Shown here: piece by piece, positions 1 to 20,118 of the stretch
How positions within the stretch are numbered: the stretch's first letter is position 1
Layout: the number at the start of each line of letters is the position of its first letter
NCBI GenBank assembly: GCA_010093995.1
Contig: ML992504.1
Coordinates: forward strand, 1,164,322-1,228,321
Direction of reading: 5' to 3'
DNA length: 64,000 bases
Source: Elsinoe ampelina
Lineage: Eukaryota
The notes under the pieces: model-generated
What the model saw: only the letters and a program-made list of their open reading frames with translations
What the model was told of the DNA's origin: nothing
Database searches by the model: none
Translations under genes and position numbers: made by a program

Positions 1-448
1 CCCTTATATACAATTATAACCTAATAGTAATTTATAGAAGATTAACCTAATTAACATTATCTATATAACCCCTACGAGCCTATTTTATATACTTAGCTAG
101 TAAGCTATATACTACCTAGAACTAATACCTTATTATCTTATTATCTACTTTATCCGGAGGATATTCTATCCTTAGTAAGTTTACCCTTATATAAATTATA
201 AATCTTAACTAGTAAACCGGAGTACTAAAGCTATTAGGCAGAGTCTAAGACTAGAATAATTAGTTCTAGGTAGTTTAGTCTTCCTACTAACTTATAGTAC
301 AGTTGCGGATTGCCTTAATACTATTAGATTACTAGTTAATAGTAAGTGTAAGGCCGTCTAGGGCCTTAATCTCTACCTAAAGGTTGTTAATAAATTTATA
401 GTAAGTGATATTAGCCTAATAAATAATAGAGAGGCGAGTAGTAGACAT
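1..448 (-). pseudogene. Possible RIP-destroyed ORF of unknown product, running off the window edge
   Basis: ATG at 448 (MSTTRLS...); in-frame stops are TAG/TAA, explainable as RIP of CAG/CAA/TGG; no recognisable motif. Confidence 0.25.
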
Positions 449-584
449 AGTAGTAGATTTGCTTAAATTCTAGCAACTATTAGTATAAGTTATACTATAG
501 CGATGTAAAGGCATACTAGATAGTTATTTAAATATTCCTAAGGAGAGAAAGAAGTAACTTAGCTAATAATCTACTTATATCTCT

Positions 585-684
585 TAGTATAACAATAGCT
601 ATTATTTAACAATAGCTATTGTTAGTATTGTCGTTTTTTTATAATAGACAATAGCTATTATCTATATTGTCGTTCTTATAATAG
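585..684. repeat. Left TIR plus subterminal palindromic repeats (AACAATAGCTATTGTT type)
   Basis: Perfect 18-bp palindrome TAACAATAGCTATTGTTA at 607-624, degenerate copies at 591 and 647, and a duplicated TATTGTCGTT...TTATAATAG block. Confidence 0.75.
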
Positions 685-714
685 GTAACGCTAGATATAT
701 ATACCTTTTAGTTA

Positions 715-1790
715 CTATTTCTTCTTCTTCCTCTTAAACCTCTCTTTCTCGTCGTTCGATACCTCCTTCTATAATGCCTCCTTCTTACGCTTAACTCTAC
801 CCCGACCTAGTAGATCTAATCCCCTTTTAGCCTTATAAGATAACTCCTAGTAACTACGCTAGGCCCTTATACCTACGTTAGTATAAAGCCTATATCCGCT
901 ATATAACTCTTATATATCTTAACTTTAATAACAACTACAAAATCTAAGCCGAATATATCTATAATAACTATAGAGGTTCGGTACTTCGCTATAAAGCCTA
1001 CCGCACTTACGATACCTCTTACAACTTTATAGGTGTTTCTAATCTAATCTTTCTCTATAATCTAACGAATATTAGTATAATATCTTATAGACTAATAACA
1101 TCTTTAACCTAATTAACACATAGCGCGCTATTAATTGTCTTATTCTCGACAGAAGAGCAAATCCACTCTTACTCTTTACTATATACTATAATATTAAATA
1201 TAAGTAGGAGAAGTTAGATTATATCGACGATAGTGACAATAGTGTTTCTTCCGACAACTAATCTAATTAAGGTAGTATAGTCGAAGCGTCGGCAGGCTAA
1301 TAGCTTTAGATAGTTGTTAATAATATAGACTTACACTTTATAAAGACTTAATTACGTTACCTCTTTCCGTAAGTAACTAAAATTAACTATAATAACGGCG
1401 TATATAAGCTCTTAAAGTAGGAGTGTTTATATTACCTCTAGCTACACTAGTAGTTATATTACTACTCTAGGTAGCACTATTAGTACTAGCGGTAGAAGTA
1501 CCTCCCTCGTTATTCTCTTTACTATCGGTGTTATTCTAGAAAGTAACTTAACTATTATCGGGCTTAAACCTAGTAAGAAAGTCGGGAGTATAATAAGGTA
1601 GATATTAGTAATAGTATAGAGAGTAGCGTTAGTAATAAGTTAGCTAAGGTTGTAGGTACTATAGCGGGGGTAGTTATCGAGGTCAATAATAAGAGAAGTA
1701 GCGTAGAGATTAGTTATAGCTTTAGCCTTTACATTATAGTCGATCTATATAATTTCCTTATTAACGTTTTTATAAGCGGATCTAGCATAA
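715..1790 (-). pseudogene. RIPed Cys-rich ORF with basic C-terminus (separate gene or 3' extension of the transposase)
   Basis: De-RIP reading gives ...SCKR(C)RKCGRL...FCSC...GRGRVKR.KEAL.KEVSNDEKERF.RKKKK then a stop at 715-717; exon structure uncertain. Confidence 0.35.
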
Positions 1791-1971
1791 CTAACGTAGA
1801 TACAAATATAGTTATATTAAAGATACTAGCGAGTAAGGGAACGAGCTTCCTTAGGGTAGCTAACAAAGGAAGACTATTAGCATTAGTAGGTAGAATTATA
1901 TATAGTAATAGGGAAGGTACGCGTAGAAGTGCTTTAGAGTAGATATTAGTATAGATACTATAAGAGCGTTA

Positions 1972-4604
1972 TTACTCGGAGGCTATTAACTAGATATGCT
2001 TAGAATACTAGCCTCTAACCTTAGTAACGTTATACGGTAGATCTTTGTCCTTATTATACCTTTCTTCCTTATTAACCTCTTTATTGCTTAAACTATAAGT
2101 AGTAATATCTCTAAAGTTGTCGCTTATACTATCTATCCCGCTATTAGTATTATTATTAGCAGTAGTAAAATTGTCCGTCTTAGCCGATTAAATGTTTTAA
2201 AGATTATTTTCTACTAGCTTAGAGACTATAATTTATCGAATTGTCTACGGAAGTAGTCTATACCTTCGATTGCTAATAATATTCTTTACTATATTAAAAA
2301 CACATTTAACACCTACGCTAGTAATTAGTATTATAAGAATATTACGAGTAATATAAGCTAGTTGTAGAAATAAGTACTTATTTTCTTTCTACTAAGAAAG
2401 AATATTAAATTCTAATATTTCTTATATAGGCGAAGTTCTAAGGTAATTCTCCCCTTCTATCCTTATTATATAGATATTACTCTACCCTTACGAAAGTGTA
2501 TTATCTTAGCTAGATACTAGAGATATAAAGCTACTTTCTATATTTAACAAGGAAGGCTTCTTAAACTAGTAAGTAATAGACGAGGCTAGTAGAGGAGGTA
2601 GGAGAGTAGTTTAAGGAGGATAGTTATTATTATAGTAATCGAGGTAGTCGAGGAACTATTTATAGTAAAGTAAGATAAAATATAGTTCCTACGAAGTATA
2701 CTTATATATACTAAGTTTCTAAGTTAGATCTAAGATTATGTTGTAATTAAATAGGAAACCTTAACCTTTACTTATTTGCTTATAATACTTAGAAAGCTTA
2801 GTGTAACTAGCTTTCGCTATATTTTATATAACTAATAGCTAGTCTAAGTTGTCATTCTCTTTCTAAGTAGACTCGACTATATTAAGAAAGTCGAAAAGAG
2901 TATTATATATAAGCTATATATATTATACTAATAGCGTGTAAGACTAACTTAGCTAGTTAGTTATATCCTTAAAATTCTCTAGTATTTGAATAATAATCTT
3001 TAGATATACCTATTTAGTATAGCTAAGGTAAAGGCGTTTTATGTCTACGTAATTAATAGATACTATATTTTAATTAGCTAGCGCTTTGTTAGTTTAGGGC
3101 TTATATGTAATTATAATCTCTATATTAAGCTATTTGTCGATAATTAGTTAAAGTTTAATAGCTCGCTTATATATATTATACGTCGAGTTCTAATAGGTAT
3201 AAATGTCCTAAACGACTAAGAGTCGTTTATAAGGAGGTAGATACGCTTAAAGGGATTTAAAGTGTTAGTAGCGTTAAGGGGATTAGTTAATTATAATATA
3301 AATCGTATAGAGCTTTAAAATTAGTTAAAAAACTATAAGAAAGAACTATAAGAAATATAACTTACTTTATAGAGGGAATTCGGAACTAATAGAGTTATTT
3401 AAATATTATAGAGATGCTACTTCTTAAGCTTATTAGCTTTCTTATCGTCCTCGGTAGTTTCTAGCTATAGGGCTTAAATAATATCTTATACGACAAGATT
3501 AATTACGTAGGCTAGATATAGAATTACATTCTCGATAGAGAACTAGTATATACTCTTCTTCTTAAGACCTTGTTATACTTTAGATCGTAGAGTATTATTG
3601 TTACTTATATTGTCCGCTATAATAGTAAGAAGATATATATTAATCTTTTTTTCATTTAGAACCCTTAGTAGTTCTATACTAAGCGCAACTCTAGTATGCC
3701 GTCTACTAATTAGTATAAAATCTAGTAGGCACTTACGTACTTACTAGTTGTTATTAATATAGTATACCTTTATAGCTATAAAACTTAGATAGTTATTCGT
3801 AGACTAGCTATCTAGCACAATTAAAACTTTCGTCTAACTACTAAGATTAGTAAGAAGATTAGACTAAATGTCCTTATAGTGCTCTTTTAATAGCCCTAAG
3901 GCCCGCGTTTAACCTAGAATATTAGTATATAGCTAGAGGAAATATATAAATTAGAGAAAGGAGAAATTATTAACTGTTTAGAATAACTAATTACAATTAA
4001 TAAGGACCTTAATAAGCTCTTTTTTAAATTGTTCTAGAGAGAATTACAGTATATAGAATATAGTACTAGTAGCGTTCACTTTTAATTACGTTAGAGCTAT
4101 CTAAGCTACTAATTATTTATAGCTAGAAGATTTTATATTCTAGTAGCTTTAGTGTCTAAGATGTTTTATTAGGTGTTTATTACTAATTAAGTTCGTTATT
4201 AGGTGTTATAAAGCTCTACTATAGTAGAGATAATACATAAGAGGTATTCTATTAGCGAGCTTAGTACCTTTATTAAAGTTGGCCTAAATAACTCTACGGC
4301 AGGTTATAGAATTCTAGTTTAGTAGGTTTCGTGTTCTACTAACCCTTAATTCGCTACCTATTAATGTTATAGGCTACTATGTTTTTTAGGCTTATATAGC
4401 TAGCTATTCTTCGAGTAGTATATCTAGTTAGTAGAGTAGATAGCTAACAATTTTAATAGTTTTATAGAATCGAGTAGAGGATAGATTATCCTAGCAATTA
4501 ATACGGAACTCTTTAAGCTCGTAGGAGAGAGGTAGTAGTAGCGCAACAACTTCTAAGAGTATCTATAGTTAAGGATTAACTAAGTCTTTATTAAACACTA
4601 ACAT
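1972..4604 (-). pseudogene. hAT transposase (RIP-inactivated)
   Basis: De-RIPed motifs in order: KV.I.LD.WST.NHLSF.AI (catalytic D, ~3810); I.ADN.SNN (second D, ~3610); IPCLAHVINLVVQ (CxxH, ~3510); DI.T.WNST (~3190); ILSWWKEN..LFPQLA.IARDIL.IPI.SVGVE.VF (dimerisation domain and catalytic E, ~2220-2420). GT-AG intron 3365-3313; ATG at 4604; 3' end approximate. Confidence 0.92.
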
Positions 4605-4778
4605 TTTAAGAGTAGAGATATAGAATATTACTAGCTATATAACAAGGAGTAGAAGACTATAAGAATGCTCTATAAGAATCTATTAGCTACTCTTAATTTA
4701 TAGATTAAAAAATTTTTAATAGTATAGAACTAGAAAGCTACTAAAACTATAGTCTAATTTTCCTAACTTAAGGTTAAT

Positions 4779-6050
4779 CTATTTATTCTTATCTATGTCG
4801 TTCTTACTCTTACTCTCCTTATTATTATTATTACTCTTATCTATTGCCTTATTATTATCTTTATCTTAATTCTCTTTATTAGAATTGTTAAAGTCTCTAG
4901 TAGTAACTATCTCGCGGTATATTTTAGCTACTTCCTTAGTCTTATACTTGTTAGGTTCCTTATTAAGGAGGTTCTTAATCTTAGAGTCGTTCTCGACTTC
5001 TTCTTTAACCTTATTATTACTATACTTAACGTAGTAATTGTTAGATTTAAGTAAAATATTATTATTCTTGTACTTAAATTCTAGTTTAGAGGTAGGTTTA
5101 CATTTACTTCGATAGATTAGTATATAACTATAAGAAACAACTATAAGAAATAATATATACCTAATTATCTACCTATACTACTTAGAGTTTAGTAGGTGTT
5201 ATATTCTTAATAAACTTCTTAAACTTAGCTTAGTTACTATTGTTATAGTTACTAGTATTATATAGTAAGTTAACGCTATTATAGTAGATCTTATAGGTCT
5301 ATTTCTTAAGAATTCCGCTAGTGCCGAGAAGATGTTTTACTTAGCAATTCAAGAATATATTTATCTCGTTATAAAGCGCCTTCTTTATATAATTAGCAAG
5401 GAGTTACTTATAGTAAAGAAGAGTATTAGCTTTATAGATACTACTTTATTTTTAGTAGATAGATATAAACTTATTCTCTAACTATTCCCCTATATAGAAT
5501 TAGTAGATATACTATAAGAATATACTATAAGAAATATACTACTCTACTAGGTATAATAGTAAGTCTCCGCTATCTTCTTATATACTATATTAAAGGTAGC
5601 TTCTTTCTCTTTATTAGATATTACTTAGAATTCCTTAGAGTTCTTAAGTTTTGCCTTAAGTATACGTTTTATAGAGTAATTAGTATTACTAGTAGTAGTA
5701 AGAGCTTTCTCCTCTATACTAGCTTATATAGCGTAATCTCTTTACTAAATAGCTCGCTAGGTATTACTAAGCTATGCTTTCTACTATAGAATTCTAAGGG
5801 GGCAGCTATAGCGAGGAGTTCTAGTATTCTAAGAGTAATTTTTAATCTAGTATTTAATCTTATCGGCCTCGGAATTAAAACTCTATAGTCTAGTTAGTAT
5901 TTAACTATAAGAAGCATCTATAAGAATTACTTCTATTATAGCAAGAATTGCTTTCTCTTTCTCAGTTATTTCTTTAGTCTTAATTACTAGAGCATCGGTT
6001 ATCTCTTTCTCTTTACTAAAGGTTTACTAATCTATAGAATTAGTAGACAT
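4779..6050 (-). pseudogene. RIPed multi-exon ORF of unknown function with a long Asp/Glu-rich C-terminal tail
   Basis: ATG at 6050 (MSTNS...KEKE); three GT..CTAA..AG introns (~5930-5883, ~5540-5490, ~5160-5108); de-RIPed tail EDDDEAMDESDDDDEESESENDMDENE then a stop at 4779-4781. Confidence 0.6.
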
Positions 6051-6207
6051 TATAGATCGAGAATTAGTAGTAATTTGTAAGAGAAGGTAGAATATTAAGT
6101 ATAATAGGGAGCGAGATATAAGATATAAGTTTTATAAGAAGAAGATAAAGAGAGAAGAATTTAGTATTTCTTATATATATAGTAAATAGAGTAGCTAGAA
6201 ATACAAG

Positions 6208-6239
6208 TAACAATAGGTATTAATCCTATTGTTATACTA
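6208..6239. repeat. Right TIR with internal inverted repeat
   Basis: TAACAATAGG-N7-CCTATTGTTA inverted repeat overlapping the TIR CTATTGTTATACTA. Confidence 0.75.
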
Positions 6240-6426
6240 ATATAAAGTTATTAATATTGTTAATATAAAGTTGTTATAGTAGAGAATAATAATACGAAAT
6301 TTACATTCTATATACTATTATAAATTCCTTAATAAGGCTTAATATCTCGCTCTTAGTATTTTCGCCTTACTCTTCTTTACCTTTATAAACAAATTTTAAT
6401 AATCAATTTAATAAATTTACGTAGCT

Positions 6427-7008
6427 ATAGCTCGTAAGAAGCAAGTAATACCTCTAAAAAGAGCAAAGCTAAGGAAGTAAGGCACTAAGAAAACTACTAC
6501 TAAAAAGCCTACTATAGGTAGTTACGTAACAAAATTTAGACTAGTATTAACTAGACAAATTCGCTAGGCGAAGAGCTATAGGTTTAAGCTAGGTAGTTAG
6601 TTTCTTATAGTAAATTCTTATAGTCTTATATCTAATATAGTATAGCTATTACTCTCCGAGAGATTCGTTACTACTAGAAGATAACTAAACTTCTTATATA
6701 TAAGCTTCTCTTCTTCTACGTTATTCGCGACATTATATAAAATGTTAAGTTAACGCTTATAAGTAGAGATTTACGCTTTACGCTAGATGCTATTAAGTAT
6801 CTCTAGGAAGCGAGTAAGGTAATACTAGTAGAATATTTCGAAGGTATATTAACTATGTATTTAGAATATATAATACCTTATACTAATAACTATAGTAGAC
6901 TATAATCTTAACGCTATCTATGCTAAGCGTTGTACTATTATATAGAAAGACTCTTAGCTTACTAGGAAATATTACAATAAGTACTACCTACTTACTTTCT
7001 CTAATTAG
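6427..7008 (+). pseudogene. Histone H3-like gene (H3L), RIP-inactivated, two introns
   Basis: De-RIPed: MARKKQ...KPRKQ...HRFKPG | TVALREIR.YQK.TELLI.KLPF..V.RDI...DLRFT.DAI..LQEASE..LVEYFE | D.NLNAIHAKRCTI.QKDSQLARK; introns 6596-6645 and 6844-6898; start codon reads ATA (ATG after RIP). Confidence 0.93.
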
Positions 7009-7119
7009 TAAGACCTCTCCTCTATAATACTATAAGAATAGACTATAAGAAATAAGTAGGTGTATTTTTATATAGACTAGACTATTAAATTTCCTTTCTA
7101 TAGACTTATTATAATACTA

Positions 7120-7385
7120 AAGTATAGTATAGTAACTGTAGTCGCCTTAAAGCCTAACTAAGGCGTAGTACTATAACGTAGTATAATACTAGGATTTAAC
7201 TCTAGTGCTAATTTGGTATAGTGCTATTATAGTATAGTATAGCGCTATTATAGTACAGTGCTATTCTTGCTTAACTACGGTGTAGTGCTAGTGCTAGTAT
7301 AGCTTAGCGCAGTACTAGTACTAGTACTAATATAGTAGAGTACAGAGCTAGTACTATTTAGTTTAGCACTAGGTGCCAACCTACT
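7120..7385. repeat. Array of degenerate palindromic octamers (YAGYRCTR), ending in a possible TIR GTGCCAACCTA
   Basis: About a dozen TAGTGCTA/TAGTACTA/TAGCGCTA/CAGTGCTA/TAGCACTA units; copia coding sequence begins right after. No partner TIR found in the window. Confidence 0.55.
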
Positions 7386-9718
7386 AAGAACAGCTCTATA
7401 CTAGTACTAGAGTCGGCCTTTAGCCGCCCTAACTCCGCCCTAACGGTTATACTACTCTATTATACTAGATTAGTTACTACCTCTATTAGACTAATTAGAT
7501 AAGGCTATTCTAGATCTAAACCCGGCTTAGATCTAGGAATCTTTACTAAATAAATAGTTCTTTAATACTCTAGCCTTACTACTATCTATAGTAGTATAGC
7601 TATCTCCTCTACTAATAGGAGGAGATAAAGCTAAAGGAGATAAGATAGAAGTTTAGACTAAAGGGGTAGTTAAAGCTTAGCCTAAGTAACCCCCTTAAAG
7701 AATTACTATAAGGTTAGCTAACCTTCTTCCTAAGTATATTCTTACTATAAGAAGAATAAGAAAGCTAAGAAGATAAGTATATATTACTACTCTTATATAG
7801 CCTAATAAAGTACCTAGATATTATTAAGCTTTTAATACTTATCTATTAATGTAGCTAACTTAGTATAAGCTAGAATTAAGAGACAATCTCTCTCTACTAC
7901 TAGCTAATATTAAAGAGCTTAAGGCTTATTCTTATAAGAAGTAATTTTAAGAAGCTATAAAGGCTAAATTGCTTACTTTATACTCTAAACATATATAGAC
8001 TATTATACTAGCTACTTAAGCAAGTAGTAAGCCTATTCCTTTAATATAGGTATTTACCTATAAGGTTAATAATAAAGGAGAAGTTATAAAGTATAAAGTA
8101 AAGGTTTATATAAGAGGTAATCTATAATTAATAGAGTTAGAGACTTATATAGTAACTCTAGTAGCTAAGATCTTTAGAATGCTTATAGCTCTACTTACTT
8201 ATAAAGATATAAAGGCTATCTAGATAGATGTTATTAATGCCTATATTAATAGCTCTATTAATAAGATTATCTACTATACTATTCCTTCTAGATTTAAGTT
8301 AGTTATAGAGGAGCTTATAAAGGACTACTCTAGTATTACTCTATTAGATGTAATTCTGTTACTTAATAAGGCACTATATAGCCTAAAGTAAGTCCTAGCT
8401 CTCTAGTATACTAAATTTACTACTACTCTAAAGAGTATTAGATTTACTTAAGCCCCTAAGGCTCTATACCTCTAGATAATACTTAAAGTAATAATCTTCT
8501 TCTTTATAGATAACATTACTATTATATATCTTAAGAAGCATAAGGAGAAAGCTAATACTATTATTATAGCTCTCTATACTAAATATAAGATAAAGGTACT
8601 TAGAGATCTAAGCTAGTTTCTAGCTATCTAAGTTATAAGAGATAGACTAATAAAGAGACTCTAGCTTAGTTAAGCCTAATATATATAATAGATATATAGC
8701 AAGTTTATTATAGAGCTAACAAGGCTAGTATTAATACTACTACTAATAGAGATACTCTAGCCTTATAAGAGCTAAGTATTACTATAAGAGATCTACCTAT
8801 ATTAGTAGAAGGTTAAATCTATTAACTTTGTAGTAGTTATTACTAGGCCTAATATTACCTTTGCTACTTCTAGATTATTAAAGCATTTAACAAATCCATT
8901 ACTAACTTACTAGAGGCTAGTAAATAAAGTAATTTAGTATCTCTATAAAACTAGAGATATAGCTCTTACCTTTAATAGCTTAATACTACCTCTAATCTTC
9001 TAAGCCTTATTAGATACTAGCTTTAGTAGTTACTCTTTAAGGAAGAGCCTTTAAGGCTATCTATTTAAGATGTTCTAAGGCTTAATTAACTAGAAGGCTA
9101 CTAAGTAGCTAATAGTTATAACCTTAAGTATAGAAGCAAAATTACTTACTCTTATAGAAACTACTAAGTAAGCTATATAGTAGAGGAGGCTAATAGCCTC
9201 TATCTATCCCCTTAAGCATATTAGTATTTAGTATAACAATTAGTAAACAATTAGCCTTATTACTACTCTAATTAAGAAGCTTAATATATATCTTTATTAT
9301 ATTAATATCTATTATTACTAGCTAAGACAAGAGATTAATCTAGCTAGAGATCTATCTAGCTCTATCTTAGTAATATAGACACTATTAGTAGACACCTTAG
9401 CTAATAGATTAACTAAGTTATTACTACCTAGAAGATATAAGGCCTTCATATAATAGCTATCCCTCAAGTTAGTAGTCTACTAACTAGCTATAATAGCCTT
9501 ACAGCTATTTAGTAAAGAGGTATATTAACCAAGATATAAGCTAGAGCACTAAGAAGGACCCTAATTTAGTTTATCCCCTAGTAGAACTAAACACTTATCT
9601 ACTACTCTACTAATTTATAATTAAATTAGATAGTTATTATCTTAATCTGTTACTATTAAGGAGTTCTTTTGATTTAGCTATCTTTTAGTATACTAGGTTA
9701 AGTATTTATGTAGTTACA
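7386..9718 (+). mobile_element. Ty1/copia LTR retrotransposon, 5'-truncated and RIPed (linker + RT + RNase H + 3' LTR)
   Basis: De-RIPed: WVFTYK....GEVIKYK.KV..RG.L (~8050); Q.DVINAYINS (~8220); NKALY.LKQ.PALWY (~8365); FFF.DDI (~8500); DASF...LFKMF.G.IDWKATKQ..V.T.STEAELL (~9010-9150); HIDI..HWLRQE; ADGLTK (~9400). No gag/protease/integrase. Confidence 0.92.
9523..9718 (+). repeat. Putative 3' LTR of the copia element
   Basis: Follows a purine tract AGTAAAGAGG (PPT-like, 9511-9520); begins TATTAAC (TGTTAAC before RIP) and ends GTTACA at the AT/GC boundary. Confidence 0.55.
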
Positions 9719-9973
9719 ATCTACCTCATTTTGGTGGTTTAGGCAGTAATCAATCCTTTTTCCTCCCCCACACAAGTCAACACGAACGCGCAGTCACGTG
9801 TATGCTTCACTGTAATTCTTGGCTTCGCTCCCCATCGACCTCCACCTGCCTCGCAACACGGTCCTCATGGAGCCAAGTAGATCTACGGCAATGCCATTAC
9901 AACATCGCCAATAACTCGAAGCGAGTCTCCATCCTCGCTGCAGCGCATCGTGTACGACCAAGAAGCAGCAGCA

Positions 9974-11284
9974 ATGCCTCCGCGAAAGCGCCGGACTGCG
10001 GCCACGACTTCTTCACCACCTCCTTCACACCCTTCAACAGCTCCTTCACCTGATCCTTCCAACTCAAACCCAGCAGATGCTCTTTCCACTACCTCGGGGG
10101 ATCCAGCAGTGGATCTTCTTTCCGATCCATGGACCGACGCCGAGGAGACAGCTCTATATCGAGCATTGATCAGACACAAGCCAACAGGGTTGCACAAGCA
10201 CTTTCGTATGCTGGACATCTACCTTGGACTGCTCAGCCAAGGATATGTACGCGAGAATCCTGCAGGCTTGGGTTTAGGTCTTGAAGAGAAGGGGAGGGGC
10301 AAAGGAACCAAGGTGCTGCTTGAGACCAAGGATGGAGAGGGGGACATTGCCATGGCCGATGCGGGAGCCGGAGATGGCAATGGCGATACACAGGAGGGTA
10401 TAGAAGCCAGGGAAAGCGATGACGGCCGACACACCTCCATTCGCGGGATATGGCGCAAGCTCCACTCACTGTACGACCTCGAAGCGCTGGATGAACGAGA
10501 ACTAGAGGGCGACTACGAACGAGCCTTTGGCACCACTTCCTCAGCCGCCTCATCCTCATCTGAAGACGAGACCACCACAAATCGCCGCGCCAAAAGATCC
10601 CGTAAAGCCTCCTCGCCCTCCAACTCCCCCGCCCCAATCGGGAGAGAATTCCACCTCCCCACCTCCCCCTCTCCCTCTCACGACAGCCCCTCCTTCACCC
10701 ACCTCATCTGGGCGAAACGCTTCCCCTCCCCATCCCCCTCCCTGCCCGGCTCAGGCCCACCCAGCCCCTCCACCACCAACCCCAAACGCTCCAGCACCGC
10801 CCGCCCCAAACTCGAACGCCGAGACAGCAGCCCTGCGCAAATGCCCGAACTTCTCCCCAGCCGACACGAACCCCCAATCAAGTTCCAGCCGAGCTTCACC
10901 ATCCCGTCCGACGGCGAGGGCGACGAAGGCGGGACACCAGTGCGCACGACGGAGAAAGAGAAGACGACGAAACGAGGCAGGGGCCGGCCGAGTAAGTCCT
11001 CTTTACCCGCGGCGGTTGCGCAGGGGAAGGGGAGGGAGAGTAATATCACGCGAAGGAGTAGTCGGGTGGCGACGAATACGAACGAGAGCGAAGAGGAGGA
11101 GGAAGGGGAGGAAGAAGGGAGCGGTGAGGAGGAGGGAGGGGAGGATGAGGATGAGGAAGAGGAGAGTAGTAGTGAGGAGGAGGAGGAGGAGCAGGATAGT
11201 CCGCAGAAAAAGACGAGGGGAGGAGGAAGGGGGCGAGGGCGGGGAAGAGGTGGTGGAAGGAGAGGAGGCAGGGGGAAGAAGTGA
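9974..11284 (+). CDS. EAF7: NuA4/TINTIN subunit Eaf7 (CT20 family)
   Basis: WTDAEETALYRALIRHKPTGLHKHFRMLDI and IWRKLHSLYDLEALDERE motifs; acidic/RGG tail. Confidence 0.85.
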   Translation: MPPRKRRTAATTSSPPPSHPSTAPSPDPSNSNPADALSTTSGDPAVDLLSDPWTDAEETALYRALIRHKPTGLHKHFRMLDIYLGLLSQGYVRENPAGLGLGLEEKGRGKGTKVLLETKDGEGDIAMADAGAGDGNGDTQEGIEARESDDGRHTSIRGIWRKLHSLYDLEALDERELEGDYERAFGTTSSAASSSSEDETTTNRRAKRSRKASSPSNSPAPIGREFHLPTSPSPSHDSPSFTHLIWAKRFPSPSPSLPGSGPPSPSTTNPKRSSTARPKLERRDSSPAQMPELLPSRHEPPIKFQPSFTIPSDGEGDEGGTPVRTTEKEKTTKRGRGRPSKSSLPAAVAQGKGRESNITRRSSRVATNTNESEEEEEGEEEGSGEEEGGEDEDEEEESSSEEEEEEQDSPQKKTRGGGRGRGRGRGGGRRGGRGKK

Positions 11285-11523
11285 TGGACTGACGAGGGTG
11301 GGGAGGCGAGGATGAGGCTGGAGTAGAAATGATACCCCTTGCGAGCGACAGCGCAGCGCAGATGAACAGTGTTGAAGGTCATGATATACATTCCCCCGCT
11401 ACCGTTAGTGATCGTGAAAACTTTTCTCCCTGCAGTGGTAGTGGTACAGATACACCCCCCCCTCCCTTCCAAAACCCTATGCAACGCGAGGCTGACCTGT
11501 CCTTGAACCAATACTCTCCACCT

Positions 11524-14500
11524 CTACCGCCCAGACCTCCTCGCCACGAAATAAACAATCAGATTCCTCATGCCCTCCTCCACGCCCCTTGCCTTCCCCT
11601 CCCCCTCCCCCTCCAAAGCAGCCCAAAACCCCTCCTTCTCCCTCACAGCCTTGCTCACGATCCCCATCCCCCCACCCCCAATCGTCCCCCCCTCCATCTC
11701 CCCATCGACACCCTCCGCGTGCCCATTCACCCCCTCACCCCCCTTCGCAGGCCAAGCAACATACAGCTCCGTCGCCAACTCGACCGCCACCTTGCGCACC
11801 TCCGCGTCCACCGACCTCAACAACCTAGCCACCAACCCCGCAATCTCCCCTCGTTGAGACGCAGTGATACCCATCTCATCACCACCCCCCGAAGCAGACC
11901 GCGAAAGCGCACCCGTCACGCACCTCACCCCCAGCGCCGTCGCGAGCGGCACGGCCTTGGCCCCTGCTCTCTCCTCCCCGTTCACGTCCGGGTAAGCAAA
12001 CGCCCCCGCCCCCTCCCCGTCACGGATCTGCTCCTCCAGGAACATACCCGCGACGTCCACCGTGCCCTTCCCGCCCAGGACGGCCGACACGTCGGCGCAC
12101 AGCGCCTCAATGTCCTTGACGACCATGGAGTGGGGCTCGATCCACTTGCGCCCTCTCAGGGTGGAGGCGAGGGATCGGGAGTAGAAATCCCCCGCCGTAT
12201 TCCAGGAAGAGAACGTCTCGGCCTTGAGCAGCCCGCGCAGGACGGTGAAGGCTTGGCGCTTGATTTCGCTCGTCATGCGGCCGGGCCGGAGGTCGAGGGC
12301 GGGCGTGCTGCCTGGTGCTGCGGAGATGAAGTCGCAGAGGGCGAGGAGGAGGTCGGTGTATAACCTCGGGACACCATCGTCGGTGTCGGCGTGGCCAAAG
12401 AGGTCGTGGGCGTCGTTGGACCGCGTGAGTTCGAGGACTTTGCGGAAGCCGTGTGTGTCGAGCGTGCGAGCGCGGATGCGGCTGATGCCGCTTTGGAGGA
12501 GCTTGCGGGAGCGGAGGCGCTCGGATTTGCTTTGGGGGGACTGCGGTGGGGAGATGGGTGGTTCGGGGATGGCGGCTGCGAGGGAGGGATCTGCGGTAGT
12601 GGGAGGGGAGGTCTCGTTGACAGCGAGCTCAGTGAGAATTTGTGGATCAGGTTCCGGTTGTGATGAGGAGACCGTGGATGTGAATGGATCTTCCCAGATC
12701 TTGACGGGTGGCTCCTCCGGCGCCGAGGCTTGCTTGAGTGGGCTGCCCTGCCGTGAAGGTGGTTTTGTCTCTGTAAGAGGTGTATCCCGACGTGGAGATT
12801 GATCAAGTGGTGATCTAGAACGTTGCGAAGATGGTGATGCCCGAGCTTGTGGTGAAGGGATATGAAGTGAGGAGCGAGACCCAGGTCGGCCTGGCAGCCC
12901 CGCAGGATTGTCAGATAAGGCTCGTATAGGTCCTTTGTGTGACGAGTTTGGACGCTCTCCGAGGCCATGTACCGTACTCGACGATTGTGTCGAAGGCATG
13001 ACGAGTGTAAAGTTGTCTTCGATCCCAAGTCCTTGCACTGCGGTATCGTAAGACTGTGCTGTCTCCAAAGCTGGTCGCTTTTTAGCTGCCGAGGAAGCAG
13101 TCTCGCGTGAGATGGCACTTGGCAGCACCATAGTCAAATCAGCAGCCTGGAGGTGACCCGAGTCCTCAGAGATGTCCAACGCGTCTCGCGTACTCGGCCT
13201 TGGACCTGTTGTTGGTCGTGCATTGTTACTGCGTAGAGGACTTGCCGCAGGACTTCCCATTCGACCGACTCGATTCCTAGCGATGGTCGATTGTGTGTTG
13301 GCGGGCTTTGTGGTTGTACTTTGACGGGGACTCCGATTGGGACTCTTATTAGAAGGCGTCTCGGGTCTGAGCATCCGCCGCGAAGCATATGGATCTGCTG
13401 TAGCGGGTCGCGCAATCTCAGGACGCTTCACGGGTCTCCGAGCGGCGCCTGACATTAATGAATTTGGTCGCGTGGTCGCGGTTGACGATGCCGAAGACAC
13501 AGAATCTACAGTCGCTGTAGATGCTACTGAAGCGTTCGATACGACTCGAGAAGATGGAGGGCCCATGGCTTTTGCTCGAGCAGAGAGATTCGCCATCGAC
13601 TTTGATTTGGCTGGTGACATTGATGCCATGGCAGTGTTTGGTCTGCTAGGTTGAGCCTTTTCTCGTTTGGCTGCCGCGATCTTGTCTCGTAGAGCTGACC
13701 GTGCTCCGCTGGCTCGACTACTGGTTGATGCCGAAAAACTTGACTGCATACTCGAGGCATTGGGATTGTGCGGATCTCGTTGAAGTGCAGTCCTGACTTT
13801 ATCGTCCAGTGCGTTGATCATCCTGGTCAAGTCAGTTTCATTTACCTTGAGCTCAAACATTGTACTCACGTCTCCGCCTTCTCGGGCCACAGCTTTGCAT
13901 ATGTCCAGTAGGTAGCCCGCATGCTCTCTTTCACCTTGGGATCAGCGTCGGTGAGACACTTCTGGATTGTCTTTTCTGCAAGGTCAAGACCGCCAACATG
14001 CTCGAAATGTGTCCTCGACCCGGCTTGGCGATTCAGAAGAGTCCGCAACCAGCCTGCCGCGCACACACGTGGCTGCTTGTTCTTGTCTTGCGCGGCAAAC
14101 CAGATATGTTGTGACAATTTGATGTTGTAAGACACGTATTGGAAGATGGTGTCAACAGTCTGGTTGCCACTTTGCGTGGCTATGGCCTTTGTCGCCGCAC
14201 ACATCTTCACGAAGCTCTGTAAGAAGAGCTCTACCATTGAGTCCATGGCAGGTCCGAGATTCCGTGCAAGTTCTTGAACCAGCTGGCAAGCGTTGGTCAT
14301 CATTGTCGTCCTCAGTGAGTTTGCAGCTTTAAGGATGCCTTCCTGCAATTGCTTCATACCAGTCATGTACACAGCGTAGTATTCGCTGGGACCATTCCCC
14401 TTGAGAAGCTTGCGAAGTTTGGTAACATCCTTGTCTCGTAGTGACCAATTCTCTTCCGACTCGCGTCCCTCAAAGTGTGGCATCATGTCTCGGAACATGT

Positions 14501-15353
14501 CTTCAAGCTCTTGCTTCGAATTGACGAAGATTGGATCCATGGGGATCTCGTCTGGAGGTGGTGGCTTCGCTTCTTCGCTGTGAATGCTTTGCGCGAAATG
14601 CGAAACGTGATCAAAAGCCGGGAGTGATCTTGTCGAGGCCCCAAGATCGACCTCTAAAGCTGGTCGGTCGGAAAGACCAAGTTGGGCCAGAATCTGTGAG
14701 GCAATAGACTGTCGCACAGCGTGCACCTTGAGCTGCTTCTTAAGATCATTCTTCGCAGGCGTCGAGGCTCCTCTGAAAAGATCTACCAGCGCAGCCTTTG
14801 CCGCGTCTCTCACTTGTCCATCTGCATCTTCAAGACACGTGACTATTGACGGAACAAAGCTCTTGAACGGTAGCGCGTGCTCGTCATGCATTTGTACCAC
14901 CCATTGCATGCCCATCTCCTTTGCGCGTCCATTGGGGCCCCCTATAGCCTCGTCGCGAATGATGTGCTCGACGTCTGTTGCGCAAAACGGGTGGAGGTCG
15001 ATAAAGGCTTGCAATGCGCCTACACGGTGGCTATCACGAGGATCGGCGAAGCGCTCTTGTAGTGCCGGCCAGAGTCGAGGCGCAAGTGATGTGATGGCTC
15101 GTCCTTCAGGATCTTGAATCTTCAGCCGCTTGATGAGATGTCCGAGGGTGGACAGGGCTGCAGTAACAACATTGATACTGGTCTGGCTCGCGATTGCAAG
15201 CTTGAGACACTCGAAGATAGTCGCCTGTGCGTTTTCCGGCACGCGATAGTGCTTGATATCCGACTTTAGGTTGCTGAGGAGTGTCAGCTTCTGCTCGGGG
15301 GGAGCAGAAGTGCGCCGCAGTGTCGCCAGTAGATTTGCCGCTTGTACGTCCAT
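11524..15353 (-). CDS. STU1: CLASP-family microtubule regulator Stu1
   Basis: N-terminal TOG/HEAT and CLASP_N motifs (FEGRESEENW, SLRTTMMTNACQLV, DADPKVKESMRATYW); short intron ~13869-13823 joins the two ORFs. Confidence 0.92.
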
Positions 15354-15921
15354 TGCGACTATGGCGAGTGTGATGTTGGTCAGCTAGAGGTCATCTGGGT
15401 TAGTTGGCCGATTGCAAATTATGAGAGCGTTGAGGTGGGGGACGAGGGAGCTCTGGGCAATATTATCTGTAATGGACCAGAGACGGATTCGCGGATCCAA
15501 ATCCAATGTTGTCTCCCAAACACGCTGCGGGTCCTCCCGTCTTTAGCCAGGGCTGCCAGACGATTGGGCCCGATTAGTTGAAAAAGAGCCCCCGCAGAGA
15601 CCGTTGTCAAGGCAAACACATGCAAGAAATGGCGCTCCGTCTTGCCGGTTTAAACTACAGTAACTTGATGTCTCTTGACCGAGTCTCGACGTCGCGGAGC
15701 ACGTGATCCTCAGCTATCTATTTCGATACTATCTCCAAGATTCGTCCTGCATTTTACATAAAGTAGCCCCTGTTCCGTTTCCTAGTCTCGTCGTGTCTGG
15801 CGTATATTTTACCCTCTTCGATTCCTCTGATCACGCTTCCGAACAACGGTGCTGCAAGGGCTGCCCTGCGCCGCAGCTAGCAATTCGTTTCTATCTCTTT
15901 CATCATCATCTTCATCTCAGC

Positions 15922-16998
15922 ATGACCATGACAAAACCCGGAACATCGTCAAATATCCCGCAGTACTTCCAGACCATGTCACTTGCTCATTCACAACCCA
16001 CGCCATCAAAGGCGCCCGAGCCAGAACGAGAGCCAGAGGTGGCAACAGACGAGACACCATCGGACTCATCCCACAAAGACCATCCTCGACTTCCAACACC
16101 TACTCTACGTGTCGAACTTCGTGATATCCGTCATGAAGCGACAAAAGTCTTCCTCGACCACGTCAATGCCGCCACCGACATTGCCAACATGGTTGACACC
16201 GTGAACGAGATCCTCTACTACCCACCGAAGACCGCCACACCTACAACCTCCAACTCATCAGCATCCACTGATGACCAGAAATCTCTCCGTCCCCGTCCAT
16301 TCCACCCTCACATCCCTCCAACCCGCTCCGTCACCTTCGTCCTCCGCGACATGGACGGCGTCGCCTACACCACCGGCCTCGAGCTCGACGACGACCACAA
16401 GGAAATCCACTTCTCCCTCTCCTACATCGCCATCGTAGCCAAACGCTTCACGCCCCGCTCCCAACGATCCTCCACGATCGCCTCATCCTCTTCTTCCTCC
16501 TCCTCCTCCTCCACCACCTCCTCAACCCAATCCACCACCTCCTCCCCTTCCCTCCCCTCCTCCTCCCCCATCCCCTCTGCCCCTCCCTCCCTCCCACCTT
16601 CCTCCCCCTCCCCCTCCCTCCCCCTCTCCACCACCTCCCCCTCCATCCGCGCCGAACTCCTCGGCGTCATCTGCCACGAGCTAGTCCACTGCTACCAATG
16701 GAACGCCCTGGGCAGCGCTCCCGGCGGTCTCATCGAAGGCATCGCTGACTTTGTGCGTCTGCGCGCCGGGTTCGTCCCGCCGCACTGGAGGCGCGAGGGC
16801 GGCGAGAAATGGGATGCTGGGTACCAGACTACGGGGTATTTCCTGGATTGGCTCGAGGGGAGGTGTGGGGAGGGGGCGGTGAGGCGGTTGAATGAGGCGA
16901 TGCGGGGGAGGAGGTATGAGAAGGGGGTGTGGAGGGAGTTATTTGGTGAGGAGGTGGGGACGTTGTGGGAGGAGTATTGTGCGACTTTGAAGGAGTGA
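15922..16998 (+). CDS. BSP (basic secretory protein)-family zinc peptidase-like protein
   Basis: DMDGVAYT, GVICHELVHCYQW (HExxH), PGGLIEGIADFVRL, WDAGYQTTGYFLDWLE; Ser/Pro insert within the domain. Confidence 0.88.
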   Translation: MTMTKPGTSSNIPQYFQTMSLAHSQPTPSKAPEPEREPEVATDETPSDSSHKDHPRLPTPTLRVELRDIRHEATKVFLDHVNAATDIANMVDTVNEILYYPPKTATPTTSNSSASTDDQKSLRPRPFHPHIPPTRSVTFVLRDMDGVAYTTGLELDDDHKEIHFSLSYIAIVAKRFTPRSQRSSTIASSSSSSSSSSTTSSTQSTTSSPSLPSSSPIPSAPPSLPPSSPSPSLPLSTTSPSIRAELLGVICHELVHCYQWNALGSAPGGLIEGIADFVRLRAGFVPPHWRREGGEKWDAGYQTTGYFLDWLEGRCGEGAVRRLNEAMRGRRYEKGVWRELFGEEVGTLWEEYCATLKE

Positions 16999-17634
16999 TG
17001 AGGAGGGGGAGGTGGGTTATGGTGTTTGGTTTCTGGGTTCGTGGTTAGGACGGGAAGTTGGCGTATTGGCTTGGGGTTTCTGTTCTTGGGGCACAGCAGG
17101 GTAGGGTGGCATGTGGAGGCAAAAAATTATAGAGCGAAAAATGATAATGGGCTTAGGTTATCATGAATAGCAATGAGATGCATTTTATGTGCAGCATATC
17201 TATCTTGGCATCTACCTCAGATCTACCGCTCTACATTCGTGCTTCGTAATTTTATGCAATGCATACAAGTCTATGTCTACTACTTCGAATCCATGTGCAT
17301 TTGCGTTTGCAAAGCCTCGATTCTAGAGCTGCTGAACCAGTGCTTACATAATACCAGTCATACGTCCAAGCTGTTCTGACAGGTTGCCGAGTCTGCCATA
17401 TTGACTTCAAGGGCGCTTGATCCATCTCGAAGACATGGGTTGAAGCTACCTTCATGCTGCTCATGTGCAGTCGTAATATGTTGAATTTCATACCCAGATG
17501 TGATTGTTCAGTTTCTGTCGCTCAAAGATATCCCGTTCATATGCATCCCTAGTGGCCATGAGATGTTTGCGGCAAGTGACTCCTCTCGATCCGACTCCAA
17601 CCGCGGCGTTTGCAAAGATGGTAGCCGCGTCATA

Positions 17635-18472
17635 CTATGAGCTCTTGAATAGCTGTGGAAAGATTGATCGTAGTTCCTCGAGTTCTCGGATCTGGTAATG
17701 TCCTGTTGGCTGAGGAGGAGGATCCGCGTCATGCTCAACCAGATGGACAGCAGTCCAGCCGAATGCTTTACCGCCTTTTACGTTCAGACCGGAGTCATCT
17801 GTTATTGATGATCAGCGTCTCTCTTAGCCCATTGATGTTCACCAGCACGTACCGACAAAATAGCAGCGTGAAACATCCTCGGCCCCAGCCTCTTTCATGG
17901 CTTTCTTGAACATGTCCTCGGCCGGCTTGCATAGTAACGGTTGCGCGGCATAGTCACAGTATGTGATGCCCTCGAATAAATCGTCAATGCCGAGTAGACG
18001 TACCACCCGTTTACCGTGGTTGACATAGGCGTTCGTGAAGAGCCAAAGCTTGACCTTGGAAGTATCCATGTCTTCTATAAGTTTTCGGAGTTGAGGATTG
18101 GGCTGTAAGATATCCTCGAGAGGCAATGCATCGTCCACTTGTGCGTTGTATTCCAATGGATCGACTTTGTGGTGGCGAACAAGACCTTCGATAGCCAGTC
18201 CATAGTCTTTGTAATATCGCATGTGCAGTTCGTTGGCATCGTCTCGAGAGAGCGACAGGTGTGTCTCGAAGTACTTGTCGATCAATCTGGTCAGGTCAGA
18301 AGAGGCCTGTGCTATGGAGCATGAGATTACTCACTCAGACATGATGTTGTGAACTCTTTTGCTTTTTGGATAGAGCTGGTCCCATCAGTATGAACGCGTG
18401 ACAACGAGGAGAGGTAATAGATACGCAGTTATCGATGTCGAAGAAGAAGACGGCTCTACCATCGGTCGCCAT
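17635..18472 (-). CDS. SDT1: Pyrimidine 5'-nucleotidase, HAD family (Sdt1-like)
   Basis: VFFFDIDNC, YYKDYGLAIEGLV, LWLFTNAY, CKP, CYFV|DDS; several short introns. Confidence 0.88.
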
Positions 18473-19242
18473 GGTTTTGGTGTGATGGAATGCTAAGGCG
18501 GGCCGAGGGGAATGACTTGAAAGACGCGCTCGAGGAGCTGTCGACTGCGGGAGGGTATGCTGTGCTGAAAGGAAAGATGACCGCCTCGGGAATATAGAAA
18601 GAAGAGATCGTGGAAAAGAGTGACTGCCCACCAGATTGTTGATGCTGGAAGGACGGGAGAAGCACTTGATGGTCGTGATGCCATGACTGCCGCTTTCAGG
18701 GTCGTGACCCGCCAAGTGCTGCTGCTCCAAGCGCCTCCCGTCGCCCACACAAAGCTTTCAAGCTTTCTGCTGCTTCTTCAACTCCACCAGCGCAACATCC
18801 ATCTCAAGCTTTTCAAAAGACGTCGGATCGAGCTTCAGCAATCGCGGTCAAGTCAAGTCAAACGTCTTTATCGCGTTAACATCCTCGGTTTTCGTCCTGA
18901 GAGGTCTGAAGGTAGCTTCGTGAGCGCTGGCGACACCAACCAAACTCGACCATCACGCGAAGTGAAGAGCTCTACCGGCCATAGAAGCAGTGACGACACC
19001 ACAACAGATCCTCAACTAGTCATCAGAGAGAGTCAATTGACCACCAATTTCCGCGACACAAATCATAGGTAACTTTCCTGGAACCCCCCCACCTTCTCCA
19101 AGGTGGTGTATTTGTACGATATTGGACAACTGGAAGATTACTCTCTCTCATGAACGACAAGATCTCTCCCTAGAGCCTCTGTGAAAAAAAGAAACGTCTT
19201 CTCGCGATCTGTGTTTCTGGCTTTTCCAGGCCATCATTCAAC

Positions 19243-20118
19243 ATGGAGGCCTACCGTATTAACACGAGCCATGCAGACCCTTCCGAGCAAGACCTCAAAG
19301 GTCTATCTCCTGTTTCCTTTGTACAAGACGAAATTATACCCTACTTCTTGACCGCCATTTCATACCTCAAAGACTGCATCCTTGAAGATAGCGGCTCCGA
19401 CCCCTCACCCAGCGAAGCATTCCGAGAAGAACTGCAGTATCTATCCACGTCCGCTCTCGCCCTTGAAGGATCAATCGACGAAGAAGCCTTTGCATTTCTC
19501 CAGAAGTTTACCGATCTCGCCATCAGTATGCCTGAGGTCTGGCTAAGTAAGAATGCCAACCGCGACAGAGTTCTTGGACGTCGTCAGTCCAACTGGCAGA
19601 CCTTCGATGCCCGAAAAACAGCACGAAAGGCAGCAAGGATGACCAGCAAAAGCACAGCGCCACCCCAGATCGTCAGGAGAGAGACTGTGGCCGTCAAGGA
19701 ACCTGTAGCGCCACAGGCACTCCCAGCAGACAGAGAGCCACTCGTCATACGTATGGTTTCAACCAACGAGCGCGCGCCGGTCCTTCCCGATACCACAGCA
19801 CAGTCGGCAAGCAGTGAGACCGACTACTACTCGAGCGTGACGGGCAAGTTCACCACCACAGGTGAAGAGGACATTGAGATGGGAGAGGCTGAGCAGGAGG
19901 TATCAAGCGACTACGAGCCAGATGTGGTCGTCCCGATTGCTCCAGTATGCTTCTATTGCCCTCATTCGTGCTCAACACTGACCAAATGCGCAGCAGGCGG
20001 ACCGCACTTATTTCCGCGAGGGGGCGCCGCCCGGTGCGCCGCCCGGTGCGCCGCGCAGGCTGGGGCGCTGGGAGAGTGCCATTGTGTTCGACCAGTATGG
20101 CAACAAGTACTTGGCTAG
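19243..20118 (+). CDS. Orphan hypothetical protein (possibly decayed)
   Basis: 291-aa ATG ORF with protein-like composition and a Cys/His cluster near the C-terminus; no family recognised. Confidence 0.4.
   Translation: MEAYRINTSHADPSEQDLKGLSPVSFVQDEIIPYFLTAISYLKDCILEDSGSDPSPSEAFREELQYLSTSALALEGSIDEEAFAFLQKFTDLAISMPEVWLSKNANRDRVLGRRQSNWQTFDARKTARKAARMTSKSTAPPQIVRRETVAVKEPVAPQALPADREPLVIRMVSTNERAPVLPDTTAQSASSETDYYSSVTGKFTTTGEEDIEMGEAEQEVSSDYEPDVVVPIAPVCFYCPHSCSTLTKCAAGGPHLFPRGGAARCAARCAAQAGALGECHCVRPVWQQVLG

Follow-up and report, generated by a model that had tools for sequence, protein, structure and literature searches.

Short words repeated within a transposon are familiar from hAT elements, in which subterminal repeats, such as AAACGG of maize Ac, are bound by the transposase. 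In the Mutator-like Arabidopsis element VANDAL21, the 9-base motif of VANC21 is found in introns, intergenic DNA and the non-coding termini; its tandem copies share one orientation and vary along with the protein, and both binding and loss of methylation have been demonstrated (Hosaka et al. 2017, PMC5735166). Among fungi, a hAT element of about 5.6 kb carrying a central open reading frame (ORF) and a histone H3-like gene (H3L) was described from Pyrenophora tritici-repentis as a ‘transduplicating’ transposon, its authors reporting no internal repeats or structural features in the accessible parts of the paper (Manning et al. 2013, PMC3538342). A hAT–H3L family has also been amplified and mutated through RIP (repeat-induced point mutation) in six Mycosphaerellaceae, with nucleotide sequences stated not to resemble the element of P. 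tritici-repentis (Dhillon et al. 2019, PMC6710886). Here, we analyse a 64,000-nt stretch of Elsinoe ampelina (assembly GCA_010093995.1, contig ML992504.1, positions 1,164,322 to 1,228,321; hereafter the window) that contains a RIPed relative of the P. tritici-repentis element. We find that a pair of identical 9-nt words, separated by four variable nucleotides, recurs through this element, mostly inside introns, and recurs at the same sites in an intact relative. The element itself is already published; the word pair is a new feature of it. No published description of the pair was found, and the accessible texts of PMC3538342 and PMC6710886 are silent on the word (‘motif’ has no use in the latter, and two uses with other meanings in the former).

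A word pair of fixed geometry in a RIPed element

Exact matches were counted over the whole window and checked against 100 whole-window shuffles. The dimer CTATAAGAA-N4-CTATAAGAA occurs seven times, against 0.00 expected, and reads on the + strand at 3333, 4657, 5128, 5512, 5905 and 7030 and on the − strand at 6602. All seven copies lie where the original prediction had placed them, with the 13-bp period and the differing 4-nt spacers that it had described. The monomer CTATAAGAA is present in 15 copies (0.61 expected), 14 within dimers and one at 7745. As a control confined to RIPed sequence, the AT-rich block at 1–9700 was simulated by Markov models of order 1 and order 3 (300 runs each), which yielded 1.13 and 2.1 monomers, respectively, and no dimer in any of the 600 runs. 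Within that block, CTATAAGAA is the sole 9-mer repeated with a 13-bp period. A dimer search tolerating three mismatches adds a single weak site, at 7932. Across the window’s 54 kb of GC-normal host DNA there is no exact CTATAAGAA. When the seven sites are aligned, the common block is the 10-nt TTCTTATAGT, and the 4-nt spacers and the flanks are all unlike. The repeated word pair is thus real and non-random.

Single words with one mismatch are frequent (33 matches, 27 of them in the AT block), and because they are so common there, isolated singles are probably due to chance. Two were noted individually: an exact CTATAAGAA at 7745–7753, within the neighbouring repeat, and a lone TTATAAGAA at 2333–2341, within the region encoding the hAT domain. 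A metagenome search for the dimer returned at least 115 loci (107 with one dimer, five with two and three with three), none of which is homologous to the element; their blastn matches span at most 82 nt, centred on the dimer word, and these are unrelated, chance matches.

The host element

Positions 1 to about 9700 form an AT-rich, RIP-mutated block, with a GC content of 0.289, a TpA/ApT index of 1.84 and a (CpA+TpG)/(ApC+GpT) index of 0.22; the corresponding values for the remainder of the window are 0.538, 0.56 and 1.27. Reading frames in the block were translated with X at stop codons, and gene models were built from frame logic and splice signals. Judged by its genes, the segment from about 2000 to 7452 is a RIP-destroyed copy of the P. 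tritici-repentis-type transposon comprising a hAT transposase, a central ORF and H3L. These genes follow one another in the order of the published element (six-frame reading and Pfam; central ORF by eye), in keeping with the proposal that H3L, the acidic (central) ORF and the transposase belong to one unit, a point already published (PMC3538342). Unlike the P. tritici-repentis element, this copy is dead, as seen in its RIP indices (1.84 and 0.22) and in the 35 stops among the 413 codons of transposase exon 1.

The transposase gene has a single 53-nt intron (3313–3365), which shifts the frame as needed. An exhaustive phmmer search with exon 1 (413 aa, X at stops) matched 516 proteins at E≤1e-3, the best of them at E 6.7e-42 and 35% identity; a word-indexed protein search with the same exon gave no match at E≤1e-3 among proteins of 227–723 aa. 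In Pfam, only the hAT dimerisation domain (Table 1) and the Histone domain of H3L exon 2 (PF00125, E 1.1e-6, 29.3 bits, cut-off 26.4) exceed the cut-off, and the other RIPed frames are mostly empty. The central ORF is homologous, by eye, to that of P. tritici-repentis; it gives a weak DUF7891 match below the cut-off (E 0.011), and RIP turned an original Asp/Glu tail into its present Asn/Lys-rich one. Its intron 3 shows a phase mismatch and leaves the frame unrestored: set against the intact relative, the dead copy seems to have lost 2 nt at the exon end.

The likely transposase stop (about 2008) and the boundary at 7452 are about 5.4 kb apart, and on the left the repeat depth extends at least as far as 1825. 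A loose contig end at 7453 is the sole basis for the right boundary. No convincing terminal inverted repeats came from a repeat search, from RIP-collapsed k-mers or from a degenerate query with the P. tritici-repentis terminus; a target-site duplication and the left end of the element were likewise not found. In public contigs of one sample, which may be the window’s own source, 3009 and 2172 contigs from two runs matched the element, indicating a high-copy family. Their differences from the window copy are nearly all transitions, and none of the 40 variant places listed falls in a dimer, a figure that gives no measure of word conservation among copies.

Position and orientation of the dimers

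Frame logic and splice signals uphold the earlier assignment of five dimers to introns, all five on the sense strand and in introns of 48–54 nt (Table 1). The intronic dimer begins 4–11 nt past the G of the 5′ splice site and ends 6–7 nt before an ACTAAC or ACTAAT branch point. Five of the six introns recognised in this copy carry a dimer; the one without is H3L intron 2 (6844–6895). The other two dimers also stand as predicted, the one at 4657 about 50 bp upstream of the transposase ATG and the one at 7030 just after the H3L stop. The former falls within a candidate 56-nt leader intron (4635–4690, GTAGCT..TATATAG) lacking a clear branch point. H3L is the sole plus-strand gene of the element and its intronic dimer is the sole inverted one; the orientation of the dimers therefore follows the gene, not the element. 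Spacings between dimers range from 384 to 1324 nt through the interior, and six of the seven lie at least 800 nt from the inferred right end. An intron-like unit with a single degenerate word (1932–1975), just past the likely transposase stop, is a possible eighth, decayed site.

Conservation in an intact relative

We compared the window copy by eye with an un-RIPed P. tritici-repentis consensus taken from supplementary file 2 of PMC6710886. The two elements agree in the order and orientation of transposase (−), central ORF (−) and H3L (+), and in the positions of introns, such as those following ..VPNSL[R/Y]K and, in H3L, ..KxG. By eye, the consensus contains 12 dimers of the form TTATCACAG-N4-TTATCACAG, a list with which exact 9-mer counts of 5 and 6 for the two strands agree. 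These dimers match all seven window sites by position and with the same 9+4 geometry: in the transposase intron, in the leader that runs from the central-ORF stop to the transposase ATG, in the three central-ORF introns, in H3L intron 1 and, in antisense, after the H3L stop. The other five have no exact counterpart in the window copy. Ten of the 12 are in sense orientation to the nearest gene, including all seven that are intronic, and the two antisense dimers, each about 270 nt from an end, are the outermost and mutually inverted (all by eye).

Between the two elements the spacers and intron flanks are unrelated, and the word and the N4 spacing are kept. Because both are retained at seven shared sites amid diverged spacers and flanks, the word and its spacing are under selection. 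The original prediction, which regarded the dimer as specific to the element and constrained, is borne out on each side: word and spacing are both conserved in intact copies, simulations produce no dimer, and neither the host DNA nor the neighbouring RIPed repeat of this window contains one.

The two words differ at position 3, where all 14 window units have C and all 24 P. tritici-repentis units have A. RIP of TTATCACAG would give TTATTATAG, and the window word, in sense, reads TTCTTATAG; because these differ, the pre-RIP window word was most likely TTCTCACAG. Its reverse complement, CTGTGAGAA, had been among the pre-RIP forms first guessed, and is the form implied by the CTGTGATAA of the intact relative. 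A position-3 change in all units at once suggests that the word changed in concert, with its reader changing along with the element.

The dimer introns also touch on a published rearrangement. A 2.3-kb deletion derivative in P. tritici-repentis reportedly arose by recombination at ‘gactat’ in the transposase and the central ORF (PMC3538342). Both in P. tritici-repentis (by eye) and at 5883–5890 of the window, a central-ORF intron with a dimer ends, on its 3′ side, in GACTAT(AG), and look-alike introns may have mediated the in-frame fusion of the derivative.

The word pair in other fungal hAT elements

With a 13-nt period, the two units of a dimer are read in successive frames, so that an intron translated by mistake spells LSQ.FIT, FIT..YH or YH..LSQ. 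These read-through peptides were searched for in 150 stored hAT relatives (43,652 residues), a test that sees sense copies only. Nine of the relatives contain 11 dimer-spelling peptides, against 0.1 in residue-shuffled controls; as back-translation is degenerate, this evidence amounts to strong consistency, short of sequence proof. Seven close relatives run on past the exon end VPNSL[RK]K (VLNSLCK in P0004), and in six of them (P0001, P0002, P0003, P0048, P0053 and P0136, but not P0004) the peptide pattern appears 3–4 residues past that end. P0054, which is 23% identical to the window transposase, has three dimers, one at the matching exon end. The letters most conserved, as judged from the peptides, are TTATCRCA. 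These observations are strongly consistent with the dimer being a hallmark of a wider fungal hAT clade that extends beyond the carriers of H3L. As for protein domains, P0017 carries PF05699 and P0054 has a Pfam-significant BED zinc finger (E 3.4e-6), the Cys/His columns of which align in closer relatives; at the Cys positions of this finger the window copy reads Tyr, the RIP product of Cys.

Two of the stored proteins retain a dimer intron in frame: in P0003, a 48-nt intron is kept as 16 extra residues, VFIFITHSYHKLTHLQ (402–417), and P0054 retains one likewise at about 200–217. Gene models of this clade may often contain such an error, a dimer intron read through in frame, and the dimer is therefore a useful flag of mis-annotated hAT genes.

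The Mycosphaerellaceae elements carry another word in a comparable setting. Their consensus word is TAGCCGGCA, with the transition variants TAGTCGGCA and TAGCTAGC and a palindromic GC core (by eye); 8-mers of this type occur in 13–26 copies each in the 45-kb file, counts that miss copies split by line breaks. Like the window dimers, the arrays are intronic, follow the 5′ splice site and precede the branch point, including at the matching codon of H3L, and have a period of 12–13 bp. Unlike the strict dimer of the window, they comprise a variable number of units, from 2 to about 14, of an unrelated word. Arrays are also found after an H3L copy and near element ends (by eye). Derivation of the window word from the Mycosphaerellaceae word by transitions was considered and is impossible in any register (by eye). 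In the P. fijiensis consensus, a second H3L copy has an intron of about seven TAGCCGGYAGCG units at a place where the first copy is intronless (by eye); the H3L copies have been described as intronless, a captured retrocopy (PMC6710886).

Table 1 Features of the hAT element in the window (for dimers, the strand given is that on which the word reads TTCTTATAG)
Feature	Coordinates	Strand	Details
Intron-like 44-nt unit	1932–1975	−	Past likely transposase stop; GTAATA..CTCTTATAG..ACTAAT..AAAG
RIP-inactivated hAT transposase gene	2008–4604	−	ATG 4604–4602, likely stop near 2010–2008
hAT C-terminal dimerisation domain	2221–2457	−	PF05699, E 9.5e-8, 32.2 bits, cut-off 21.4
Dimer	3333–3354	−	Sense TTCTTATAG-TTCT-TTCTTATAG; transposase intron, 11 nt past 5′ splice-site G
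Dimer	4657–4678	−	Sense, 52 nt upstream of transposase ATG, about 100 nt downstream of central-ORF stop
Central (‘acidic’) ORF	4779–6050	−	Three introns: 48, 50, 54 nt
Dimer	5128–5149	−	Central-ORF intron 3, 5107–5160, GTATAT..ACTAAT..AAG
Dimer	5512–5533	−	Central-ORF intron 2, 5490–5539, GTATAT..ACTAAT..TATAG
Dimer	5905–5926	−	Central-ORF intron 1, 5883–5930, GTAA+word..TACTAAC..TATAG, 48 nt, frame kept
Histone H3-like gene (H3L)	6427–7008	+	Start ATA = RIPed ATG
Dimer	6602–6623	+	H3L intron 1, 6596–6645, GTTAGT+word..CTAAT..TATAG
Dimer	7030–7051	−	Antisense to H3L, 22 nt past H3L stop; no GT just upstream on − strand
CCGCCCTAAC(T), two copies	7424–7444	+	Word unlike dimer word; probably subterminal repeat, right end

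Neighbouring DNA

From 7453 onwards (7453–7900) lies a different repeat that is far more abundant: loose contig ends are found at 7453, and the summed contig depth rises from about 7,000 to 20,000–53,000. This position is probably the edge of another transposon, with the hAT copy nested in it or beside it. At about 7800–9500 (+), the RIPed translation tentatively resembles a fragment of a copia-type reverse transcriptase by eye (for example ..FFFIDNITIIY..), and Pfam is blank there at E≤1. The border between the RIPed block (GC 0.29) and gene-rich DNA (GC 0.54), at about 9700, is sharp, and an ORF starts within about 250 nt of it. At the other end of the window, positions 1–30 and 183–210 are direct repeats, CCCTTATATA[C/A]AATTATAA, tandem ACAATAGCTATT-type units occupy 590–680, and 1–1900 has no Pfam match.

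Discussion

On the evidence of sequence, the word pair is a conserved cis-acting signal of a known transposon. We tentatively favour, at a probability of roughly 0.4, the reading that an element-encoded protein, the BED-finger transposase being the simplest choice, uses the dimers as docking sites; the action of the word as DNA, its reader and the effect of binding are all inferred. A sequence-specific protein of the element would dock on the dimers as DNA, the candidate being the transposase with its N-terminal BED-type zinc finger. Sites would be kept only where 22 fixed bases leave coding sequence unharmed, and one bound factor would tie together all transcription units of the element. Possible effects include autoregulation or activation of the element’s own genes, protection from silencing, or service as an internal enhancer for assembly of the transposition complex. 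The roles first proposed, in directing H3L deposition or anti-silencing, would be further and purely speculative possibilities. The transposase is the simplest candidate because it is the sole gene known to be common to all word-bearing relatives. If the reader is element-encoded, the occurrence of the word in distant relatives known only by their transposase points to the transposase over H3L and the acidic ORF.

Several observations weigh against such docking sites. The word in introns is always in sense (5 of 5 in the window; 7 of 7 in P. tritici-repentis, by eye) and is fixed in place after the 5′ splice site and 6–7 nt before the branch point, neither of which a DNA site needs. Rich in pyrimidines and closing with CAG or TAG, it resembles a splice acceptor. 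Its near-identity across transposases that are 23–35% identical to that of the window would fit a conserved host factor equally well. The BED finger of the window copy is known only through alignment, its Cys now being Tyr, and the DNA comparison with the P. tritici-repentis consensus was made by eye. Finally, the subterminal repeats, which are the usual binding sites of hAT transposases, use other words, CCGCCCTAAC in the window and a GGGTTGGG-type word in P. tritici-repentis. The dimers resemble such repeats in being a short word repeated within the element, and the outermost two P. tritici-repentis dimers are themselves subterminal and inverted; unlike them, most of the dimers are interior and stand one per intron, and the window dimers take their orientation from the genes and are not clustered at the ends.

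The main rival, only somewhat less probable and already raised in the original prediction, is that the word acts as RNA, as a splicing signal placed in the intron after the 5′ splice site and ahead of the branch point. As an upstream pyrimidine tract or pseudo-acceptor it could recruit a splicing factor; alternatively, it could serve regulated retention like that of P-element intron 3. Either way, very short transposon introns would be spliced, or held back, in any host. The constant sense orientation in introns speaks for this, as do the 11 of 11 read-through peptides in sense (although the method sees only sense copies), the inversion of the dimer together with H3L on the + strand, the fixed layout (5′ splice site, 4–11 nt, dimer, 6–7 nt, ACTAAY) and the presence of a dimer in five of six recognised introns. 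The word also resembles a pyrimidine tract plus YAG, and its conservation across distant elements suits a conserved host splicing factor. Kupfer and colleagues reportedly observed in 2004 that fungal introns often have a pyrimidine tract upstream of the branch point.

However, the word also stands outside clear introns, in the dimers at 4657 and 7030 and in five of the 12 of P. tritici-repentis. Relative to the nearest gene, one window dimer and two of those in P. tritici-repentis run antisense; their RNA would carry another sequence, from which the word could not be read. The strict 9+4+9 geometry and the conserved CACAG exceed the needs of a pyrimidine tract, and a position-3 change in 14 of 14 units is hard to reconcile with an unchanged host factor. 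H3L intron 2 lacks a dimer, yet is spliced in P. tritici-repentis according to an expressed-sequence-tag legend (PMC3538342). The GC-rich palindromic arrays of the Mycosphaerellaceae, of up to about 14 units, occupy the same place in introns and are unlike a splicing signal, and no host intron in the window’s 54 kb has the word.

A more elaborate form of the docking-site reading, which we consider unlikely, is that of a private address code. The dimer, read by the BED-finger transposase or the acidic protein, would, in members that carry H3L, act with the captured H3 variant and a chaperone-like acidic protein to give the element a silencing-resistant chromatin, as an independently evolved fungal counterpart of VANC. 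VANDAL21 shares with the window element a 9-base word enriched in non-coding parts and one-orientation tandem copies (PMC5735166). The two differ in that VANDAL21 is Mutator-like rather than hAT and belongs to a different kingdom, in that the window element is known from sequence alone, and in that the window array is a strict dimer adjoining the 5′ splice site; no VANC-like gene was seen in the window, although no search aimed at one was made.

That the word is a functionless relic of intron spread, inherited with a mobile or gene-converted, introner-like intron, is improbable. The introns are certainly alike in layout and length (48–54 nt). Van der Burgt and colleagues are said to have described introner-like elements of Dothideomycetes in 2012. 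Such elements are known from this class (PMC4457414) and, like the window introns, are families of look-alike spliceosomal introns within one fungal class; the P. fijiensis H3L copies with and without an array intron at one codon could also mean intron gain (by eye). However, introner-like elements sit in many unrelated host genes and have reported stable folds, whereas the window introns are confined to the transposon, have only the word in common and are unstructured: RNA folding of the five dimer introns is unremarkable (z −0.12, 0.16, 0.46, 0.39 and +1.85, for RIPed sequence with coordinates 2–11 nt off the final limits). Spacers and flanks diverged beyond recognition around a word and N4 kept at seven sites argue for selection, and the word is present outside introns and has no copies in host genes of the window.

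We give little credence to the idea that the word is a host GATA-factor site, in which case the dimers would be small modules, promoters or enhancers, relying on a borrowed host regulator. The consensus for GATA factors is HGATAR, and the reverse complement of the relatives’ word, CTGTGATAA, contains TGATAA, a match to it; several dimers also lie 8–52 nt upstream of start codons. However, the inferred window word CTGTGAGAA destroys the GATA core in 14 of 14 units, the orientation follows transcription, which enhancer sites do not need, and the letters conserved in the peptides, TTATCRCA, go beyond GATA alone.

Chance, or the collapse by RIP of unlike sequences onto one AT-rich string, would be helped by the loss of variation under RIP (CA, TG and TA all become TA, which helps to make the 14 units identical) and by the many one-mismatch singles of the AT block, but is refuted by the absence of dimers from 600 composition-matched simulations and 100 shuffles, by the dimers of the un-RIPed relative and by the intact proteins that encode dimers.

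A word pair that is kept, multiplied and changed in concert offers a concrete and testable way of learning how the genes of a multi-gene DNA transposon are coordinated or protected by the element itself. As P. tritici-repentis has copies of the element that are live and un-RIPed, tests of binding and splicing are straightforward. If the transposase is the reader, the dimers would represent transposase-driven self-regulation in fungi through sites hidden in introns; if the word acts as RNA, it would count as a defined intronic splicing element, a rarity in filamentous fungi.

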